Assembly: GCA_018895235.1 (NCBI GenBank)
Contig: JAHIOM010000013.1
Location: forward strand, 6,527-70,526
From: Patescibacteria group bacterium
GTDB lineage: Bacteria; Patescibacteriota; Minisyncoccia; Minisyncoccales; Staskawiczbacteraceae
Length of the DNA: 64,000 nucleotides
Direction of reading: 5' to 3'
Part shown: positions 2,866-41,002 of the stretch, one piece after another
Position numbering within the stretch: position 1 is the stretch's first letter
How the letters are laid out: every line of letters begins with the position of its first letter
Made by a program: the position numbers and the translations under genes
The notes under the pieces: model-generated
Told to the model about the DNA's origin: nothing
Seen by the model: the letters and a program-made list of their open reading frames with translations, nothing else
Databases searched by the model: none

Positions 2866-5600
2866 TATTTTTTAGAACCGACCTTAATTAGATGAGATTT
2901 TCTTGGTTTCATTAATAGGGCCGGCATCTCAAAAACAATCTTGCTGTCTTTGGCATCAATAATGATATTGTCGCCTTCTTTAATTTCATTGGTCACCAGC
3001 TTCAAAGATAAAGGATCCAAAATTGTCCTTTGGATAACTCTTTTCAAGGGACGAGCGCCTAAGTTCGGGTCAAAACCCTTATTTGCCAAAAGTTCTTTTG
3101 CTTTTTCAGAAATTCTAAAAGTAATGTTTTTTAATTTAAGCCTTTTTTCTACTTTTGCAAGTTCCAATTCGACGATCTTCTTTATTTCCGGCCTTCTTAA
3201 ATAATTGAAGATTATAATCTCGTCTATTCTGTTCAAAAACTCAGGCCTGAACTGGTCTTTTAATGCTTCTGTTATTTTATCTTTCATTGATTCTCGCTGG
3301 GCCTGGTCTTCTTTGGTGGAAAAGCCAATTGCTGACATTTTATTAATGTAATCAGAGCCGACATTAGATGTCATTATAATGATTGAGTTTTTAAAAGAAG
3401 CCACTCTGCCCTTAGAATCGGTCAGCCGGCCGTCCTCAAAAATCTGAAGCAAGATATTAAATACTTCAGGGTGGGCTTTTTCTATCTCGTCCAGTAAAAT
3501 CACGGCATAAGGCCTTCTCCTTATTTTTTCTGTTAACTGGCCGCCCTCTTCATAACCGACATAACCAGGAGGAGAACCGATAATCTTGGCTACGGTGTGT
3601 TTTTCCATATATTCTGACATATCCAAGCGGATCAGGGATTTTTCATCATTGAAAAGAAATTCGGCTAGAGCCCTAGCAGTTTCTGTTTTGCCAACGCCGG
3701 TTGGACCCAAGAACAAGAAAGAACCCATTGGCCGGTTTTCCTCGGCAATGCCTGCCCTTGCCCTTCTAATAGCCCTGGAAATAGCTTCAATACCCTCTTC
3801 CTGGCCAATAACTCTCTTTTTCATAATGTCTTCCATATTTTCCAGTTTTTGGGCTTCTTCAGTCATTAACTTAGTTACTGGAATTCCTGTCCAACGAGAA
3901 ACAACATCAGCAACATCTTCTTCGGTTACTTCTTCTTTAATATAGTGGTGCTTGCTTTGAAGTTTTATTAATTTCTTCTCAGCTTCTTTTGACTCTTTTA
4001 ATAATTGGGGGATTTTACCGTATTTTATTTCAGCTACCTTTTCTAGATTGGCATCTCTTTGGGCGATTTCCGTCTGATATGATAATTCGTCAATTTTCTT
4101 CCTGATTTCTTTTATCTTGTCCACTAATTCTTTTTCTGCCTGCCATTTTGCTCTTATACCTTTTGATTTTTCCCGTAAATCAGCCAAAGAGCGCTCAATT
4201 ACTTTTAACCGCCTTGCTGACCCGGTTTCTTTTTTTAAGGCCTGTTTTTCAATTTCAAGTTTGGTAATTTCTTTATCATATTTTTCAAGGTCAACCGGAG
4301 AAGATTCAATTTCCAAACGTAAAGAAGAACCAGCTTCGTCCATCAAATCAACTGCTTTGTCCGGCAAAAACCTGTCTGAAATATAGCGGTTGCTTAACTC
4401 CACTGCTGCACAAATCGCAGAATCCTTAATTCTTACTCCGTGATGAACCTCGTATTTTTCCTTAATACCGCGCAGAATAGCAACTGTATCTTCGGGAGTC
4501 GGCTCCTGAACATAAATTGGCTGAAACCTTCTTTCCAAAGCAGGATCTCTTTCAATATATTTTTGATATTCTTTTAAGGTAGTGGCACCGATAGCTCGCA
4601 GCTCGCCTCTTGCTAAAGCAGGTTTTAGTAAATTGGAAGCATCAATTGCGCCTTCAGCTGCACCGGCTCCAACTAGCGTATGAAGTTCGTCAATAGATAA
4701 AATGTATTTACCGTCAGCTCGATTGATTTCTTTTAAGAGGGCTTTTACCCTTATTTCAAACTCGCCCCTGTATTTAGTTCCGGCAACTAAAGAACCCAAA
4801 TCCAAAGCAATTATTTCTTTGTTTTTTAAAAACTCGGGCACATCACCCTTGCTGATTTTTTGGGCAAAACCCTCAACAATAGCTGTTTTACCAACTCCGG
4901 CTTCGCCTATTAAAACCGGGTTATTTTTTGTCCTTCTGGAAATAATTTGCATTAAACGCCGAATTTCGTTTTCTCTGCCGATAATCGGATCTATTTTTCC
5001 GGAAGCAGCTAAGTTGGTCAGATTTCTGGTGTACTTTTCAACAACCTGATATTTTGATTCTGGTTCGGGATCAGTAATTCTTACTCCGCCCCTGATTTGG
5101 GATAAGATTTTTAAAATCGCATCATATTCAAGCTTGCTTGTTTTTAGGGTAGCTGCATCTCCTGCGCCTGGCTGTAAAAAAGTTACTTTATCTAAAACAT
5201 CTTTAGCATTGGTTGGAGTATCAAGCAGGCCTAAAAATAAATGCTCCACTGAAACAAACTCATCACTCATTTTAAGAGCTTCTTGCCTGGCTCTTTCTAG
5301 AACCTTTGCCATATCCTGGGTTAAATAGAACTGGCCAACTCCTGAAGGAGTAACAATTGTCGGAATTTTGTTAACCTGCGTTTCAACTTTCTTTTTAAGA
5401 TTTTCCGGGTCAACGCCCAGTTTTTGAAGTATAGTCAAAATAACACTTTCTTCTTGCGATAGTAAAGATAAAAGCAAATGCAGGGCATCAACCTGTTGCT
5501 GACCCCTTTCTTGGGCAAACGACTGAGCGGAAAGTATGGATTCCTGGGCTTTATTGGTAAAATTAGCTCCGTTCACACTTCGACTCGTCCTTCGTTTCAC
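2865..5600 (-). CDS. clpB: ATP-dependent chaperone ClpB (two AAA+ modules, middle coiled-coil domain)
   Basis: Walker A GEAGVGKT and GPTGVGKT, long coiled-coil M-domain, and N-domain HLLLSLL. The ORF begins at GTG (5598-5600) with SD GAGGA 4 nt upstream. An alternative GTG start lies at 5574-5576. Confidence 0.9.
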
Positions 5601-5968: not shown

Positions 5969-6834
5969 TTAGGTTTTTTATGGAAGGAAAATATCTTTTG
6001 AGTTGAGTCAACAAACCACATTTCTATCCATTGATTGACCCTTTTTCTTTCTTCTGAGGACAAAGTCTTAACAAAATCTTTTTGTTTTGCTAGTTTTTTT
6101 GCAATCTCGTCAGTCGAAATTTTGCTTAATTCTCCAAAGGTTTTTCTGGCAGACCCGACTAAATCTCCGTGAGCGCCTAAAAGTAAATCTTTTCTGAGCC
6201 AATTAGCCGAACTGTTAACGGCGCGGGCATAAACAGAGAATAAAGAGTTTGAAGCCGGGACCGCCCACTCCATCATTTTCTTCATATCGGGCTTTTTCCG
6301 GTCGCATTGCTTTGAGTACCGGGAAATCAAAACATCAATGACAATTGTTAAAAGTTCGGGCATGCTTAAGGTGATTCCCATCATAAAATCATGCTCGTCT
6401 TCTGTTTGGCACTGGATAAAACTAATCTCTTGTTCTTTTAGAAAAGACAAAACTCTTTGAGCTTTCTTATTTCTCTTTGTCGTATTGCCGTTGATAATAA
6501 CCCATTTTTGGCCATTTAACGGAATATGGGGACCGTGCAATGGATGTAAGGACAGATGAACAGCGCCTGTGGTTTTGATTATCCTGGACAAACGCCGTTT
6601 TATAGAACAAACATCAATAACTAACTGGTCGGGGCTTAAACGCACGTCTTTGATAATGCCGGGAATGGCATCACGCGGAACAGCCAACCAAATAACATCT
6701 GATGTCCAAATCTTTCCCCAGGTTCTGGGAGAATTGTTTCTGTCTACCAAATTAACCGGGCCCAGTTGTTTCAAAAGCGGGAAAAGAAGATTCTTCGCTA
6801 TATCTCCTTTTGCTCCAACAATTGCGTTAATCAT
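5965..6834 (-). CDS. prephenate/arogenate dehydrogenase (TyrA family) with a C-terminal extension
   Basis: N-terminal Rossmann IVGAKGDIA, ...DVIWLAVP...VIDVCSIK...LHPLHGP matches the TyrA core (HPmaG). The C-terminal ~120 aa are unassigned. Confidence 0.6.
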   Translation of the reverse strand: MINAIVGAKGDIAKNLLFPLLKQLGPVNLVDRNNSPRTWGKIWTSDVIWLAVPRDAIPGIIKDVRLSPDQLVIDVCSIKRRLSRIIKTTGAVHLSLHPLHGPHIPLNGQKWVIINGNTTKRNKKAQRVLSFLKEQEISFIQCQTEDEHDFMMGITLSMPELLTIVIDVLISRYSKQCDRKKPDMKKMMEWAVPASNSLFSVYARAVNSSANWLRKDLLLGAHGDLVGSARKTFGELSKISTDEIAKKLAKQKDFVKTLSSEERKRVNQWIEMWFVDSTQKIFSFHKKPK

Positions 6835-17417: not shown

Positions 17418-18416
17418 TTAGGGTTGAAACAATTTCCGAGCCTCGTTCCATATTTCCGGCTGATTATGTTTTTCTTTGAGCCAATACCACCATTCGGCGC
17501 CCCAAAGATAAAAAGTGTCAAAACCGGTTTTCTTGGCAAACTCAATATTATGCTTAAATTTTTCCAAATTCATTGATTTTTGCTGTTCTTCTATAGGCAA
17601 ATCATATAAAAGTATCGGTCCCCAGGGCTCTGCCTGAAGCTCAACACATTGCACTTCTTTGCCCAATAATGTTTTAACAAGCTGGGCCTTTGACCAATAA
17701 AACAGGGGGGGGAAGGGCACAGAGAAATAAACATTCAATTCTTTCGACCAAACCTTTTTATACATTGTAGTTCCTGCTATGTCTCCGATTTTGGCGGCTT
17801 TCAACCATAAAGAAAACTCTCCTGTATCTGAAATTATAATCGGTCTTTTTTGCAGGTCAAGAGATTTAACCAACTCTACCTCCTTTTTAAGAAAGTTTAT
17901 ATCGGTCTTAGGACATTCTCCAAACGGGAAAAACGGTTCATTCTCAACCTGCCAAGAGATAACAGCATTTGAATCTCTATATTTTAAAACCATTTCTTGA
18001 ATATATTCTAAAACCTCGTTTTCTCTCTCTTCTTTTGATAGGCCTTCTACCCAAGCCGGCATATGGCACTCTGGCCATCGCCCGGTTTTCATACCAATTA
18101 CCATCATTAACTTTACCCCATTTTCTTTTGCTTTTTTAACTTGCCAGTCCACATCGTCAAAAAAATAATCATTTCTTTTACCCTCAACCCAATCCCAATT
18201 AATAATAAGCTTAATATATTTTGCTCCTAAATCTTCAATCAGTGCCAAATATGTATCTTTCCAATCCAGACCCAATCTTTCAGTCTGCATCTGGGAAAAA
18301 TTAACACCCCATAAAATATTCTCGGCTTGAGGCGCCCGACCGATGAAAAAGTACAAAACCAAAAACAAAAATGACAAAACCAAAGCCAAAAGAATTATTT
18401 TCAGCGTTTTTTTCAT
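17418..18416 (-). CDS. secreted or membrane-anchored glycoside hydrolase, GH5-like TIM-barrel fold
   Basis: N-terminal TM/signal, and a conserved NEP motif (ISWQVENEPFF) typical of the GH5 catalytic acid. Confidence 0.45.
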   Translation of the reverse strand: MKKTLKIILLALVLSFLFLVLYFFIGRAPQAENILWGVNFSQMQTERLGLDWKDTYLALIEDLGAKYIKLIINWDWVEGKRNDYFFDDVDWQVKKAKENGVKLMMVIGMKTGRWPECHMPAWVEGLSKEERENEVLEYIQEMVLKYRDSNAVISWQVENEPFFPFGECPKTDINFLKKEVELVKSLDLQKRPIIISDTGEFSLWLKAAKIGDIAGTTMYKKVWSKELNVYFSVPFPPLFYWSKAQLVKTLLGKEVQCVELQAEPWGPILLYDLPIEEQQKSMNLEKFKHNIEFAKKTGFDTFYLWGAEWWYWLKEKHNQPEIWNEARKLFQP

Positions 18417-32472: not shown

Positions 32473-33471
32473 TTAAAGCCTAGAAATTTTTTGTTTCAGC
32501 TCATGGCCGTTGCAATGTTTTAATACCCCAAAATATGACTGCAGGGTTTGGTTGAATAAATCTTTTGATATCTTGCCCTTGTCAAAATCAAGGGATTTTA
32601 ATTTTATCTTTTCCAGCATTCTCTTTTTTGTTTTTGTTCTTAAAATCCTATGATATGGGAGGTCAACGTAACCCAGAAAATCAATTCCTTGATGATGTTT
32701 TTTAATTATTACTTTACCTTTATGTAAAGACAATTTCAGTTTCTCTTTTAAGAACTCACTAATTACGGAAATAATACTTTCAAGATGTTCTCTATCACTA
32801 GTTAAGATAACGAAATCGTCGCAATAGCGGATATAATGTTTTATTCTCAAATTTTGTTTAATAAAATAATCCAATTCGTTAAGGTATATGTTGGCGAATA
32901 ATTGGCTTGTAATATTTCCTAATGGAAGGCCTTTGTCGGACAATGTTGAAAAACTTTTAATGATTTTTTCTATTAACCAAACGGCGTTTGTGTCTTTAAT
33001 TTTCTTTTTAATCAAAAAAGTCAGAATATCTTGGTCAATCGAATTAAAGAACTTTTTAATGTCGCATTTTAAGATAAAACAGGTTTTGGTTCTGTTTTTA
33101 CTGGTTTTTCTGGCGAACATCTGAAGTCGGCTGACCGCTTTATGTGTTCCTTTGGCGTTTCTACAGGAATAAGAATCGAATATGAATGATTTGTCGAAAA
33201 TAGGATACAAAATTCTGAATATGGCGTGGTGCAAAACTCTGTCTCCTACGCAGGCTTTATGGATTTTTCTAGGTTTTGGGTCGCAGATGTTAAATGATGT
33301 ATAATCAGAATGAGAATAGATTTTTATTTTTAATTCGTGATGGAGTTCAAAAATATTGTTTTCTAAATTGTATTCAAACTCCTGAACGTCTTTCTTTTTT
33401 CTTTTTCCTTTTTTAAATTCGTCCCAAGCTAAAAACAAGTTATCAAGAGAAATAATCTCTTTAAACATATT
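32473..33471 (-). CDS. diversity-generating retroelement reverse transcriptase (the ORF extends to 33579 via TTG through a poly-G tract; the likely start is Met at 33471)
   Basis: RT motifs: LFLAWDEFKKGKRKKKDVQEFEYNLENNIFELHHEL (DGR-RT-type N-terminus), KPRKIHKACVGDRVLHHAI (motifs 1-2), GLPLGNITSQLFANIYLNELD (the [I/L]GxxxSQ form of motif 4), YIRYCDDFVIL (YxDD), FLGY (motif 7). Confidence 0.85.
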   Translation of the reverse strand, partial: NMFKEIISLDNLFLAWDEFKKGKRKKKDVQEFEYNLENNIFELHHELKIKIYSHSDYTSFNICDPKPRKIHKACVGDRVLHHAIFRILYPIFDKSFIFDSYSCRNAKGTHKAVSRLQMFARKTSKNRTKTCFILKCDIKKFFNSIDQDILTFLIKKKIKDTNAVWLIEKIIKSFSTLSDKGLPLGNITSQLFANIYLNELDYFIKQNLRIKHYIRYCDDFVILTSDREHLESIISVISEFLKEKLKLSLHKGKVIIKKHHQGIDFLGYVDLPYHRILRTKTKKRMLEKIKLKSLDFDKGKISKDLFNQTLQSYFGVLKHCNGHELKQKISRL

Positions 33472-33483
33472 ATATCTCTGGAT

Positions 33484-33549
33484 ATAATTATTACGCTCGG
33501 TCGAAGAACAAAAATAAATTTTTTCTCTTCTCTCTCGCTTATAATTATG
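33484..33549 (+). repeat. E-family repeat element E3 between the RT start and avd
   Basis: ATAATTATTACGCTCGGTCGAAG...CTCGCTTATAATTATG; 60 of 66 positions shared with E4 reverse complement. Confidence 0.55.
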
Positions 33550-33567
33550 GAAAACTTTTCCTCTAAT

Positions 33568-33577
33568 CCCCCCCCCC
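33568..33577. repeat. homopolymeric C10 (G10 on the RT strand) tract 13 nt upstream of the avd TTG start
   Basis: Counted directly: ctctaatCCCCCCCCCCaac. With C10 the upstream ATG (33547-33549) reads into a TAA at 33586-33588. With C9 that ATG is in frame with avd. Confidence 0.8.
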
Positions 33578-33589
33578 AACCAGTTTAAT

Positions 33590-33919
33590 TTGCCAATTTT
33601 GCATAGAGTTTATGAATTATATAAATTATTTTACCAATATGAGCAACACCTTCCTCAAAAAGATCGCTATTGTATCGGACAAAAATGCGAAAAAATAATT
33701 TTAGATATTTTAGAACTGATTATTGGAACAATTCAGTCACCTAAAAATAGAAAACTAGAACTACTGAATGAAGCAAGCATAAAGTTAAATATTTTAAGAA
33801 TAATTATTCGTTTATCAAAAGATATAAAAGCATTAGACTTTAAAAAATATATTACCCTACAGGAAAATATAAATGAAATAGGAAGAATGCTAGGTGGCTG
33901 GATAAAATCACTAAAATAA
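33590..33919 (+). CDS. avd: Avd-like DGR accessory protein (four-helix-bundle, 23S rRNA intervening-sequence protein family); TTG start as drawn
   Basis: LPQKDRYCIGQKCEKIILDI...NEIGRMLGGWIKSLK matches the IVS-protein/Avd family (LPKeekY.LgdQlrRAa....EIGKMLnGLIksl). It is divergent from the RT and followed by the terminator hairpin AACACCCCAAATGGGGTGTT (33931-33950). Confidence 0.65.
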   Translation: MPILHRVYELYKLFYQYEQHLPQKDRYCIGQKCEKIILDILELIIGTIQSPKNRKLELLNEASIKLNILRIIIRLSKDIKALDFKKYITLQENINEIGRMLGGWIKSLK

Positions 33920-33970
33920 TCTTTAACAAAACACCCCAAATGGGGTGTTCATCTTTGATAGAGAAGGAAG

Positions 33971-34085
33971 TTCCTAACGGAGGAAAGGCCGATGTTGTCA
34001 TTGCGATTGTCATCCCAGTAGTTGTTGACATTGAGACCACTTGAGTCGAAGTTACCGATATTGACACGGTTGCCGTCCGAGTTAA
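33971..34085 (-). repeat. DGR template repeat (TR); the sense strand is minus
   Basis: 115 bp aligning colinearly with 34379-34493. Translated in the target frame it gives NSDGNRVNIGNFDSSGLNVNNYWDDNRNDNIGLSSVR, with AAC (Asn) codons at the variable positions. Confidence 0.85.
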
Positions 34086-34305: not shown

Positions 34306-34334
34306 GCCCCTCGACTGCTATGCAATCGAGGGGC
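34306..34334 (-). terminator. GC-rich hairpin (GCCCCTCGA-loop-TCGAGGGGC) 45 nt downstream of VR/IMH; target-gene terminator and possible DGR homing-enhancing stem-loop
   Basis: 9-bp perfect stem followed on the minus strand by a T-rich tract. A GC-rich hairpin/cruciform downstream of VR is a known DGR feature in Bordetella phage BPP-1. Confidence 0.5.
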
Positions 34335-34371: not shown

Positions 34372-35256
34372 CTAAACCTTCCTGACGGAGGAAAGGCCGA
34401 TGAGGCCATGGCGAGTGCCATCCCAGTAGTGGCTGACATCGAGACCACTCCAGCCGAAGCTACCGACATCGACACGGAGGCCGTCCGAGCTAATATCCGA
34501 GCAATGAACATATACTTGCTCGAATAACCGCTCGTTAGTGGCCATAAAATGACCGATAATGGTGTAAACCATTACTTGGGCAGTTGGCGTTTCCTCATCC
34601 TTGGCGAGAAGCGATTGCTGCTCATTCCAGGTTTTGGAGGTCGAGTTGCTGACTGGCGTCTTGCGGACAAGTTGCCAGCTGACCTCGCCGTGTTCTTTGG
34701 CAAACTTTTCCTGGTTATGCCAGTCCTGGCTGTAGAACAATCCTTTGTCCTGCACCTTTCCACGAATCTCGAGGATCGAGATTGGGAAGATTGCCACAAA
34801 GACATGAGTGTCCTTGCACTCCTGGAGAACGGCTTCGGAGAACGGAATCTCGGAGAGGATGGCGAGTTGCTGCTTCGTGGAATTAACCCCGAAGTGCTTG
34901 ATCGCCTCCTCGACACCGAAGAAGTTCTTGCCCATGATTTCATGGGCGCGCTTCTGAGATGTCGTAGCTTCGTAACCACCTCTCTGAATCAACCCTACCA
35001 CCTTTGTGGCAAGGTCGTTGCCCTTTGAGTCAATGACCTTCTGGGCAAGTTCGTCCGTGAGCCCCGCCTTCTCCATTTTGAGAAGAAATTCGTGCTCATT
35101 GTGCACCGAAATAGTGCGTTCATCTGCTTGGCTTACCATGGTATTCATAGCACACCTTCCTTTCTTATAAAGAACAAAAACTCGTTGCTGATTACCCGCA
35201 ACTAGGCTATTAAGCACTATGCTTAATATGACTATATTATTGCAGCTACGCTGCAT
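34372..35256 (-). CDS. DGR target (variable) protein with a C-terminal CLec-like variable region; GC-rich, no signal peptide (alternative start M37 at 35148)
   Basis: C-terminus ...YVHCSDISSDGLRVDVGSFGWSGLDVSHYWDGTRHGLIGLSSVRKV* is encoded by the VR. The VR ends 5 nt before the stop codon. Confidence 0.8.
   Translation of the reverse strand: MQRSCNNIVILSIVLNSLVAGNQQRVFVLYKKGRCAMNTMVSQADERTISVHNEHEFLLKMEKAGLTDELAQKVIDSKGNDLATKVVGLIQRGGYEATTSQKRAHEIMGKNFFGVEEAIKHFGVNSTKQQLAILSEIPFSEAVLQECKDTHVFVAIFPISILEIRGKVQDKGLFYSQDWHNQEKFAKEHGEVSWQLVRKTPVSNSTSKTWNEQQSLLAKDEETPTAQVMVYTIIGHFMATNERLFEQVYVHCSDISSDGLRVDVGSFGWSGLDVSHYWDGTRHGLIGLSSVRKV
34379..34493 (-). repeat. DGR variable repeat (VR) at the 3' end of the target gene
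   Basis: About 20 mismatches versus TR over 115 bp. About 18 lie at positions where the TR sense strand has A (T on the + strand), with substitutions to C, G or T. The IMH-like 3' end GGCCTTTCCTCCGTCAGGAA differs from the TR (..GTTAGGAA) by one base. Confidence 0.85.
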
Positions 35257-38971: not shown

Positions 38972-41002
38972 ATGAATTTAGTTATCGTTGAAAGCCCAAC
39001 CAAGGCAAACACAATTCAAAAGTTTTTAGGAAGCGATTATAAAGTACTTTCTTCTTTTGGCCACATAAGAGATTTACCAAAGAATGAATTGGGGGTGGAC
39101 GTTGAAAATGATTTTACGCCAAGATACGTTATTCCACCAAAAGCCAAAAAAACCTTGTCTGCGTTAAAAAAAGAGATCAAGAAAGACACTAAAACCATAC
39201 TGGCCACCGATGAAGACCGGGAAGGAGAAGCAATCGCCTGGCACTTATCAGAAGTTTTAAAATTGGAAAAACCAGAAAGAATCGTCTTCCATGAAATCAC
39301 TAAAACAGCTATTAAAGAGGCGATCCAAAATCCAAGATCTATTAATATGGATTTAGTTGATGCCCAGCAGGCAAGAAGGATTTTAGACAGAATAGTCGGA
39401 TATAAGCTTTCTCCCTTCCTTTGGAAAAAAGTTGCCAAGGGCCTTTCAGCCGGCAGGGTTCAGTCAGTAACCGTAAGGTTAGTTGTTGAAAGGGAAAGAG
39501 AAATAGAAAAGTTTGTACCGCAAGAATATTGGACCATTGAGGCTTTATTTAAAAAAGAAAATAACGAATTTAAAACAACTCTAGTCAAAAAGGACGAAAA
39601 ACCGATAGATAAATTGGATATTAAATCAAAAAAAGAGGCTGATGAAATTGTAAGTGATTTAGAGGGCGCGCAATATAAAGTAATAAATATTGAAAAAAAA
39701 GAAACGAAGAAGAACCCTTTTCCTCCGCTTACCACCAGCACCCTGCAGCAAGAGGCCTGGAAACGACTCCGCTATCCGGCTAAATTCACTATGAAAATAG
39801 CCCAGGATCTTTATGAAGAGGGTCATATTACTTACCATAGGACTGATTCGGTTAACCTATCTAAAACAGCTTTGTTTTCAGCCAAGAAATTCATTGAGGA
39901 AAATTACGGTGAAAATTATTGGTCGGGCTATTTAAGACAGTATAAATCAAAAGGAAGAACCCAAGAAGCTCATGAGGCAATTAGACCAACTTATGCTGAA
40001 AATGCACCCGAAAAATTAAAACTAGATGACAAACATTTAAAGATTTACAAACTTATTTGGCAAAGGTTTATCGCCTGCCAGATGGCTCAAGCTATATTTG
40101 ATGCAACGACTATTGATGTTGATGCTAAAAATTACGGTTTCCGGACAACGGGCCAAATCTTAAAGTTTGATGGTTTTTTAAAAATCTACCCTATGAAATT
40201 TACTGAGGAGCAACTGCCGGATTTAGAAAAAAACGAAGTTTTAAAATTAGTAAAAATCCTCCCCGACCAGCATTTTACAGAACCTAGCGCAAGATATAAT
40301 GAGGCAACCCTGATTAAAGCTTTGGAACAGAATGGAATCGGCAGGCCGTCTACCTACGCTCCGATTTTATCCACCATCCAAGAAAGAAACTATATTGAAA
40401 AAAACGAACAAAGAAGATTTAAACCAACCGAAATCGGCTTTGTAGTAAATGATTTATTGGTAGAACATTTCCCAGAGGTTGTTGATGTGGATTTTACCGC
40501 CAAAATGGAGAAAGAATTAGACGAAGTAGCAGAAGGAAAGGATACATTAGTGAAAACCTGCAAAGATTTCTATACTCCCTTTTCTAAAAATTTAAAGGAA
40601 AAATATAAGGAAGTTTCAAAATCAGACATCACCGATAAACCAACAGACAAAGTCTGCCCGAAATGCGGTTCGCCCTTAATTGAGAAACTTGGAAGATTCG
40701 GCAGATTCTATGCCTGCTCTAAATTCCCCGAGTGTAAATACACCGAATCCTTACCAGAAAATAATTTAGGAATAAAATGCCCAAAATGCAACAAAGGCAA
40801 GATTGTTGAAAAAAGAACTAAAAGAGGAAAAATATTTTATGCCTGCAACCAATTCCCGAAATGCGAATTCGCTCTCTGGGATAAACCGATAAATGAAAAT
40901 TGCCCAAAATGCGATTCCCCGCTTGTAGAAAAGGCAAAAAACATAAAATGTTCTAACAAAGAGTGTGATTATCGTTTAACAAAAAACAAAGATGTTCGAT
41001 AA
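38972..41002 (+). CDS. topA: DNA topoisomerase I with C-terminal zinc ribbons
   Basis: TOPRIM N-terminus MNLVIVESPTKANTIQKFLG, active-site Tyr region, and three CxxC...CxxC zinc-ribbon repeats at the C-terminus. Confidence 0.9.
   Translation: MNLVIVESPTKANTIQKFLGSDYKVLSSFGHIRDLPKNELGVDVENDFTPRYVIPPKAKKTLSALKKEIKKDTKTILATDEDREGEAIAWHLSEVLKLEKPERIVFHEITKTAIKEAIQNPRSINMDLVDAQQARRILDRIVGYKLSPFLWKKVAKGLSAGRVQSVTVRLVVEREREIEKFVPQEYWTIEALFKKENNEFKTTLVKKDEKPIDKLDIKSKKEADEIVSDLEGAQYKVINIEKKETKKNPFPPLTTSTLQQEAWKRLRYPAKFTMKIAQDLYEEGHITYHRTDSVNLSKTALFSAKKFIEENYGENYWSGYLRQYKSKGRTQEAHEAIRPTYAENAPEKLKLDDKHLKIYKLIWQRFIACQMAQAIFDATTIDVDAKNYGFRTTGQILKFDGFLKIYPMKFTEEQLPDLEKNEVLKLVKILPDQHFTEPSARYNEATLIKALEQNGIGRPSTYAPILSTIQERNYIEKNEQRRFKPTEIGFVVNDLLVEHFPEVVDVDFTAKMEKELDEVAEGKDTLVKTCKDFYTPFSKNLKEKYKEVSKSDITDKPTDKVCPKCGSPLIEKLGRFGRFYACSKFPECKYTESLPENNLGIKCPKCNKGKIVEKRTKRGKIFYACNQFPKCEFALWDKPINENCPKCDSPLVEKAKNIKCSNKECDYRLTKNKDVR

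Follow-up and report, generated by a model that had tools for sequence, protein, structure and literature searches.

Contingency loci and diversity-generating retroelements (DGRs) are two classic bacterial strategies of localised hypervariation. For the former, the closest described systems are the homopolymeric G/C genes of Campylobacter jejuni, Neisseria and Haemophilus, which are treated in the PhasomeIt survey (PMC6321876), in a review of C. jejuni (PMC8355987) and in an article entitled 'Homopolymeric tracts represent a general regulatory mechanism in prokaryotes' (PMC2831843). Phase-variable homopolymers have so far been described mostly in host-adapted pathogens. For the latter, the DGR of Bordetella phage BPP-1 is the closest described relative, and passages of Wu et al. 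2018 (PMC5758913) assign 90% of the DGRs of the Candidate Phyla Radiation (CPR) to an arrangement of avd, template repeat (TR) and reverse transcriptase (RT) termed 'B3'; in the same passages, neither homopolymers nor variation in the frame of avd or RT is mentioned. According to a 2024 study of Bacteroides DGRs, the signals and mechanisms governing mutagenic retrohoming are still to be discovered, and the restraint of DGRs is an open question. The stretch of DNA analysed here, called the window, comprises 64,000 nt of a Patescibacteria contig (JAHIOM010000013.1, positions 6,527 to 70,526) and contains a DGR in which a run of ten C's (C10) lies at the 5' end of avd. This tract is a real homopolymer that has been maintained in evolution and is unstable in length. 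On balance we lean towards an explanation in which changes in the number of C's at replication would switch full-length Avd on and off, and thereby the activity of the DGR, as the patterns found in related loci suggest.

The run was confirmed at positions 33568-33577 of the forward strand and corresponds to a G10 on the strand of the RT gene. It forms the junction between the frame of the avd start and the frame of the avd body and supplies codons 8-11 of an ATG-initiated avd. The displaced 5' end of avd occupies 33547-33588 of the forward strand and consists of an ATG, 12 further codons (MENFSSNPPPQPV) and a TAA; from the ATG at 33547-33549 it reads ATG GAA AAC TTT TCC TCT AAT CCC CCC CCC CAA CCA GTT TAA, one extra C placing it out of frame with avd. 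In the initial annotation this ATG was said to read through the run and to terminate 2 nt before a TTG at 33590. The read-through holds, and the peptide ends at TAA 33586-33588, leaving a gap of 1 nt (33589) rather than 2 nt. The avd body (33590-33919, forward strand) encodes 109 aa from this TTG and contains the bAvd domain (PF22296). As sequenced, avd can indeed start only there, given that the avd frame opens past TAA 33542-33544 and contains no earlier in-frame ATG, GTG or TTG. It was likewise borne out that removal of one C (C9) brings ATG 33547 into frame with avd, with a product beginning MENFSSNPPPNQFNLPILHRVYE... The NQFN codons at 33578-33589, directly 5' of TTG 33590, are conserved and stand in the avd frame.

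A run of C10 is far more than chance would produce here. In the 64-kb window, with a GC content of 36.6%, C runs of lengths 1 to 6 number 6954, 1984, 434, 104, 25 and 3, a drop of about four-fold for each extra base; lengths 7 to 9 are empty, and then a single C10 appears. From base composition, about 0.006 runs of at least 10 are expected in the window. Among G/C runs of more than 6 bases, the window has only one more, a G8 at 17705-17712. It is a C8 on the coding strand, read in frame (FPPLF) inside a 332-aa open reading frame (ORF) at 17418-18416 of the reverse strand, and may be a further slippage-prone site.

The hypothetical C9 product was used as a query against 5.8 billion proteins in order to see which avd start is authentic. 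Full-length matches reached at most 76% identity, the closest being P0002 (76% identity over 97% of the query; N-terminus MASNPPPNQFNLPILHK) and P0006 (71% identity over 100% of the query; N-terminus MENLSSNAPPDRFNLPILHR). The predicted extension was also found in P0008 (MPPPEGFNISILHK), P0105 (..LTSNPPPSQFNL) and P0120 (MKNFTTTPPPDG). The only protein at about 99% identity, P0001, is the 109-aa TTG call itself, present under four NCBI accessions on four contigs, and no in-frame C9 allele of the same strain was found among the 5.8 billion proteins. For P0121, a second member of this cluster, no contig was located. Relatives that lack the tract (L010, L012, L080 and L136) carry a homologous extension in frame, MPDSHNDEKPDRLNLDIPIF, and most of the wider Avd family begins with M[DNE]xF[DN]IPIF, indicating that the residues before the Leu of the window's TTG are normally translated. 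Since close homologues and tract-less relatives carry the same extension, the upstream ATG together with C9 represents the authentic N-terminus of avd. ATG 33547 is the ancestral start and the window allele a shifted one, because the N-termini of homologues match the C9 reading. TTG 33590 as the genuine sole start was rejected as a general solution, since the four codons 5' of it are conserved in the avd frame and homologues carry the extension. In two related loci, L051 and L057, a canonical start is missing at the LPI position, where the TTG of the window lies.

DNA was recovered for 17 loci, the window included, with a pure C run at the avd site, and all were tabulated uniformly. In the 16 other orthologous loci the same site holds C8 to C11, and all three frame relations between the ATG and the avd body are present, so that the loci can be divided into three classes. 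The ATG is in frame in 5 of them: L169 and L167 with C8, L081 and L134 with C9, and L082 with C10. Seven are offset by 1 and have one base too many, namely the window (C10), L164 and L051 (both C10), L162, L042 and L057 (all C9), and L171 (C8, after which a T interrupts the remaining C's). The window is tabulated together with L001, the locus with the window's arrangement on contig JAHIMO010000007.1 of the Patescibacteria metagenome-assembled genome (MAG) GCA_018896455.1. The remaining 5 are offset by 2 and have one base too few: L163 and L168 (C10), L165 (C11), L166 (C9) and L170 (C9 then A9). On the 5' side of the run, M[EKT]NF[ST]SN is conserved in its own frame whether or not this is the frame of avd; on the 3' side, [NDSG]x[FL]N-LPILH is conserved in its own frame, and the run is the only place where the two frames join. 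All 17 loci have an intact avd body. A particularly close comparison is that of L162 (ENA) with L163 (JGI), two loci of separate samples: in 2784 nt they show 19 mismatches (99.28% identity), and the sole gap between them is the avd tract, C9 versus C10. L164, from a JGI sample, shares about 80% DNA identity with the window over the aligned 1.3 kb, its Avd is 86% identical, and its ATG-C10 arrangement is identical to that of the window. In viral contigs, the pattern of tract plus flanks was unmatched. In L170 (positions 602-619) the C9 is directly followed by an A9 (C9A9, PPPKKK in the avd frame), while its close relative L167 has C8AA; two adjacent homopolymers are thus expanded at one site.

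A neighbour-joining tree of Avd cores indicates that the run (C of at least 8) was kept by all 12 members of the clade of the window, and the other five carriers sit in a wider clade of 41 leaves. The avd tract is the sole G/C run of at least 8 in the 67.9 kb of the 17 loci. CCC makes up 23% of the Pro codons of the window; the prolines at the tract are always CCC. The run itself appears to be under selection and kept beyond amino-acid need.

Across 718 kb of DGR loci, 29 G/C runs of at least 7 were counted, of which 17 are at the avd site and 5 at a single site inside the RT gene. This second site belongs to another clade among the CPR DGRs and carries G9 to G10 on the coding strand of RT in five loci: L052 (1828-1837), L156 (651-660), L153 (1950-1959), L138 (1950-1958) and L125 (1789-1797). 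The G run is read as GGG codons in a loop just before the motif G[LI]P[IL]GN.TSQ.FAN.YLNELD. In L052 and L156 the RT is split into two frames at the run, tblastn giving two high-scoring segment pairs that abut the tract, while in L125, L138 and L153 the RT is in one frame. The presence of the same element in a different DGR gene of a different clade suggests that the target of selection is a switchable DGR machinery rather than a strand-specific peculiarity of the region between avd and RT. Two side observations concern runs of this kind. On the reverse strand of L153, about 70 nt upstream of the G10, a TGA in RT takes the place of a Trp that is conserved in relatives (FL*L versus FLWL or [RS]WL[LV]), which could reflect an alternative genetic code or a second lesion. 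In L101 (Spechtbacteria) there is an isolated G10 at 3327-3336, about 800 nt downstream from the start of avd, and no conserved coding was seen around it in any frame of a 190-nt view.

The slipped-strand switch put forward in the initial annotation is supported by these data: the run is pure throughout the clade, its length varies from C8 to C11, the frames are distributed 5 : 7 : 5, and it is the sole indel between contigs of 99.3% identity. What is seen corresponds to a slipped-strand contingency locus, because the run is pure, its lengths are centred on 9-10, three frames occur, near-identical genomes differ and both flanks are conserved. The proposed course of events is as follows. Slipped-strand mispairing at replication would alter the number of C's. 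With C9 or C12, the ATG would be joined to avd and full-length Avd, MENFSSNPPP(P)NQFNLPILH..., would be produced (ON). With C10, as in the window, the ATG would be out of frame, and only a 13-residue peptide would be made, ending 1 nt before TTG 33590 (OFF or low). Residual and inefficient routes to Avd in this state might be initiation or re-initiation at the TTG, where low-level re-initiation is conceivable, or slippage of the polymerase or ribosome on the run. In the studied Bordetella DGR, Avd is reportedly required together with RT for cDNA synthesis. The tract would gate mutagenic retrohoming stochastically, heritably and cell by cell. From comparisons of this sort we infer that switching would take place in populations at a high rate, that the out-of-frame state would lower Avd and that the tract would control DGR activity and retrohoming.

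Several points weigh against this explanation. The tract is codon-aligned with the N-terminal region of RT on the other strand, and RT may explain part of its conservation. The TTG-initiated Avd still spans the whole Pfam bAvd domain, and 'OFF' may be only 'less' or 'different'. All tract lengths come from consensus assemblies, some of the contigs are short or of low coverage, and the sampled loci are phylogenetically related; the single-base difference between L162 and L163 could be an assembly error in one low-coverage contig. Finally, 5 in-frame consensus sequences among 17 is about what is expected for random lengths. This proportion could mean that the frame is irrelevant to expression, as with slippage at the RNA or ribosome level or with an internal start, and it could also mean that the gene is often inactive.

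Among the alternatives, slippage at the level of RNA or the ribosome survives best, although we consider it unlikely as the full account. According to this alternative, the polymerase stutters on C9 to C11, or tRNA-Pro slips by +1 or -1 on CCC_C with the aid of polyproline stalling, and every allele gives some in-frame Avd; the tract would act as a constitutive attenuator or as a source of noise, and its length in DNA would drift neutrally. It is well known that tRNA-Pro can slip by +1 on CCC_C and that ribosomes stall at PPP motifs, while for efficient transcriptional slippage the best evidence comes from A/T runs. The near-equal frame classes, 5 : 7 : 5, are as neutral drift in length predicts, and out-of-frame alleles persist with an active-looking DGR and an intact avd body. 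On the other hand, the frame relation, the position of the downstream stop and any stimulator are all unconserved, which differs from known recoding sites, and the in-frame alleles retain a run that would then only cost expression. Switching in the DNA happens in any case, because the change in length is seen directly between the near-identical contigs L162 and L163; slippage at the RNA or ribosome level may coexist with it. A more specific candidate, a fixed programmed +1 frameshift, was tried and rejected. The first four out-of-frame loci (the window, L042, L051 and L057) and the protein P0007 all needed +1; eight closer relatives then gave the opposite class and in-frame alleles, the opposite class being that of L163, L165, L166, L168 and L170. 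The 0-frame stop lies 3, 5 or 12 codons past the run depending on the locus, and a common upstream element is absent. The avd tract is not a member of the recoding-site family, because its frame relation is not conserved.

The strand of RT offers a further alternative, which the DNA around the RT start brings out. In the window, the G10 lies about 100 nt upstream of the RT ATG, which is at 33468 and not 33471. The RT frame is open further upstream (33469-33579, reverse strand), where TTG(33579)-GGG GGG GGG-IRGKVFHN is followed by an in-frame insert of 25 codons (75 nt) that separates KVFHN from ATG 33468. IRGKVFH is the codon-aligned antisense of MENFSSN of avd. In the poly-C clade, including L162, L163, L164, L165, L166 and L168, the RT frame reads GGG-IR[GR]KVFHN-IFDEIIS, antisense to MENFSSN-PPP, and KVFHNIFD is homologous to MKIYKNLFE, the RT N-terminus of tract-less relatives (KVFHN of the window against MKIYKN). 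The earlier placement of the tract in the 5' leader of RT is therefore only partly right, as in relatives the tract abuts the N-terminal coding region of RT and is codon-aligned antisense to it. In most members of the clade, no ATG, GTG or TTG is available to RT in the stretch from the tract to the EIIS motif. As a side observation, the RT of the poly-C clade might start at an ATT, perhaps with the G run as a ribosome-binding site. Translation of RT from upstream through the G run was considered and rejected, since a consistent canonical start upstream is absent.

It could be supposed on these grounds that Avd starts at TTG 33590 or a later codon, that the run serves the RT strand as a G-rich ribosome-binding element or as GGG codons, and that MENFSSN is a shadow of RT coding. 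The codon alignment of the two strands, the alignment of KVFHNIFD with MKIYKNLFE and the missing canonical starts between tract and EIIS all agree with this proposal, as do the in-frame TTG that TT plus G10 gives to RT in the window and L164 and the coverage of the entire Pfam domain by the TTG-started Avd. We nevertheless hold it to be improbable. The codons after the run (NQFN, DRFN or SGFN) lie upstream of any RT start and show conservation in the avd frame, the internal avd start has no canonical counterpart in L051 and L057, and homologues with in-frame extensions are called as such. In 7 of 15 loci, the RT frame on the upstream side of the run either lacks a canonical start or meets a stop within 3 codons. 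The run still persists inside avd in L081 and L134, where an ATG belonging to RT itself is found 21-24 nt downstream of it. Moreover, the independent G run inside RT in the other clade cannot be a ribosome-binding site. In a combined proposal, the 5' coding ends of avd and RT overlap codon for codon and one homopolymer, in both or at their edge, serves both genes, a single slippage re-framing avd and altering the initiation of RT; taken with the independent G run inside RT of the sister clade, this would mean that hypermutation by DGRs in CPR bacteria is itself subject to a hypermutable phase control acting in both directions. The in-frame TTG of RT in the window and L164 arises only in the state in which avd is out of frame. 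We regard this combined proposal as speculative and doubtful.

Decay of the system, in which many lineages are in the course of losing a functional avd and DGR and the homopolymer is just the place most prone to mutation, is still harder to sustain. It would account for the 12 out-of-frame loci among 17, for the split RT in 2 of the 5 loci with an internal run, and for the interrupted run of L171 and the added A9 of L170. However, the avd body (about 106-109 codons) and the upstream peptide are intact and conserved in all 12 out-of-frame loci, and the run consists of C alone even where Avd identity falls to about 64%, and is kept in all 12 clade members. Scattered lesions would be expected and a single site is seen, while TR and the variable repeat (VR) still bear the adenine signature; decay is unlikely because the lesions are confined to the run. 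An error of sequencing or assembly, which had also been raised and which would make the true sequence C9 and avd an ordinary ATG-initiated gene, is hardly credible even though homopolymers of at least 10 are classic sites of indel errors and C9 restores the conserved N-terminus, because the out-of-frame state is shared by the four contigs and accessions of NCBI MAG proteins with the 109-aa TTG call, by L164 with the same C10 and by 12 of the 17 assemblies (NCBI, JGI, ENA and Logan), in both directions, and because the search with the C9 product gave no full-length match above 76% and only the 109-aa call as a near-identical one.

The cassette around the tract is a DGR, with an RT, an adenine-biased TR/VR pair and an Avd of the bAvd family, which form a four-helix bundle. 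The avd ORF at 33590-33919 matches Pfam bAvd PF22296 with E = 8e-20 over profile positions 3-106 of 107 (71.8 bits against a gathering cut-off of 40), and the name given by NCBI to its product is 'diversity-generating retroelement protein Avd'. The RT gene occupies 32473-33468 of the reverse strand, divergent from avd, and encodes 331 aa from ATG 33468 with a match to Pfam RVT_1 (E = 6e-22). TR (33971-34081, reverse strand) aligns over 111 nt with VR (34379-34489, reverse strand), which forms the 3' end of a target gene at 34372-35256 of the reverse strand. The two repeats differ at 18 positions, 16 of which are adenines in TR (A-to-N). A GC-rich 13-bp hairpin (34306-34334, reverse strand) lies directly after VR and the stop of the target gene. 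A hairpin or cruciform element is said to lie downstream of VR in the Bordetella phage DGR, and the hairpin of the window resembles it. A terminator-like hairpin (33930-33949, forward strand) follows the avd stop and is near the end of TR on the other strand. Between 32400 and 35400, no Rfam family was matched up to E = 1. In a promoter scan, sigma-70-like sites were no commoner than in shuffled sequence (4 versus 3.9). Apart from the tract, the DGR appears intact and functional-looking.

In the window, avd is located between TR and RT, on the strand opposite to RT and divergent from it, and RT and avd are divergent in 161 of the 169 related loci fetched. The distance from the EIIS codons of RT to the IPI codons of avd has a median of 47 nt in the related loci. 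The start codons of RT and avd are 0-20 nt apart and often back to back (CATATG or CATATATG), for example in L105, L111 and L124, and a Shine-Dalgarno (SD) sequence is absent from both divergent starts. It follows from this spacing and the missing SD sequences that the promoter of each gene is inside the other gene or that the mRNAs are leaderless. In the window as a whole, an SD-like pattern precedes 7 of 32 long ORFs. Six of these, with starts at 6834, 7967, 8301, 9545, 11769 and 13498, have a clear AAGGAG-type SD and fall in the region of 6.8-13.5 kb, which is also higher in GC (0.40-0.43 versus about 0.35); the seventh match, at the ORF starting at 38972, is a weak GGAG. In several other genes (e.g. 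starts 60208, 35382 and 29568) the ATG is preceded at a distance of about 7-9 nt by a TATAAT, an arrangement that resembles leaderless genes.

Searches of the literature gave no report of a DGR or Avd controlled by a homopolymer, by slipped-strand mispairing or by phase variation, nor one of phase variation at homopolymers in the CPR. If the switch is real, a hypermutable repeat, located in avd in this locus and in RT in a sister clade, would activate the retroelement in only a random subset of cells, and the two strategies of hypervariation named at the outset would be coupled in one locus. For the question of how DGRs are restrained, the locus suggests a concrete and testable answer in one large uncultured group. 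There is also a practical side, in that gene callers cut these Avds back to the internal TTG or split the RT; as a consequence, such loci may be put in the wrong class by surveys in which DGRs are rated 'complete' or 'active'.

Comparison with the known systems indicates both similarities and differences. Programmed +1 frameshift and transcriptional-slippage genes (prfB, Thermus dnaX and the transposases of IS elements) likewise have two conserved segments in different frames with a slippery run, and CCC_C is a plausible slip site for tRNA-Pro; in those genes, however, the frame relation is fixed and stimulators are present, whereas three relations and no conserved stimulator are found here. 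With the Bordetella phage BPP-1 DGR (avd-TR-brt) and its Avd-RT complex (PMC6182149, PMC7826257), the locus shares the bAvd and RVT_1 domains, the adenine-specific mismatches between TR and VR and the hairpin after VR. In contrast to BPP-1, avd here has TR on one side and RT on the other, is encoded on the strand opposite to them, diverges from RT with starts that are back to back or overlapping, and has an N-terminal extension that contains the homopolymer. To our knowledge, no homopolymer or phase switch has been described for BPP-1. As in the CPR architecture B3 described in passages of Wu et al. 2018 (PMC5758913), the cassette consists only of avd, TR and RT, and its arrangement would probably place it in B3.

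The closest likeness is to the homopolymeric G/C contingency genes of C. jejuni, Neisseria and Haemophilus (PMC6321876, PMC8355987, PMC2831843), in which a pure run of 8-11 nt also lies near the 5' end of the ORF. In both, the length varies between close strains, three frames occur, the run is kept against codon preference and the lengths cluster at 9-10. The characters of a contingency locus that can be judged by sequence, namely the run, its polymorphism among strains, the switching of frame and its maintenance, are all apparent in the avd tract. Those genes belong to host-adapted pathogens, whereas the host here is of an uncultured, free-living or episymbiotic lineage of Patescibacteria. 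The gene gated in those pathogens is a surface or modification gene; in the DGR described here, known from its sequence, the gene that the homopolymer would gate is itself part of another diversification machine.

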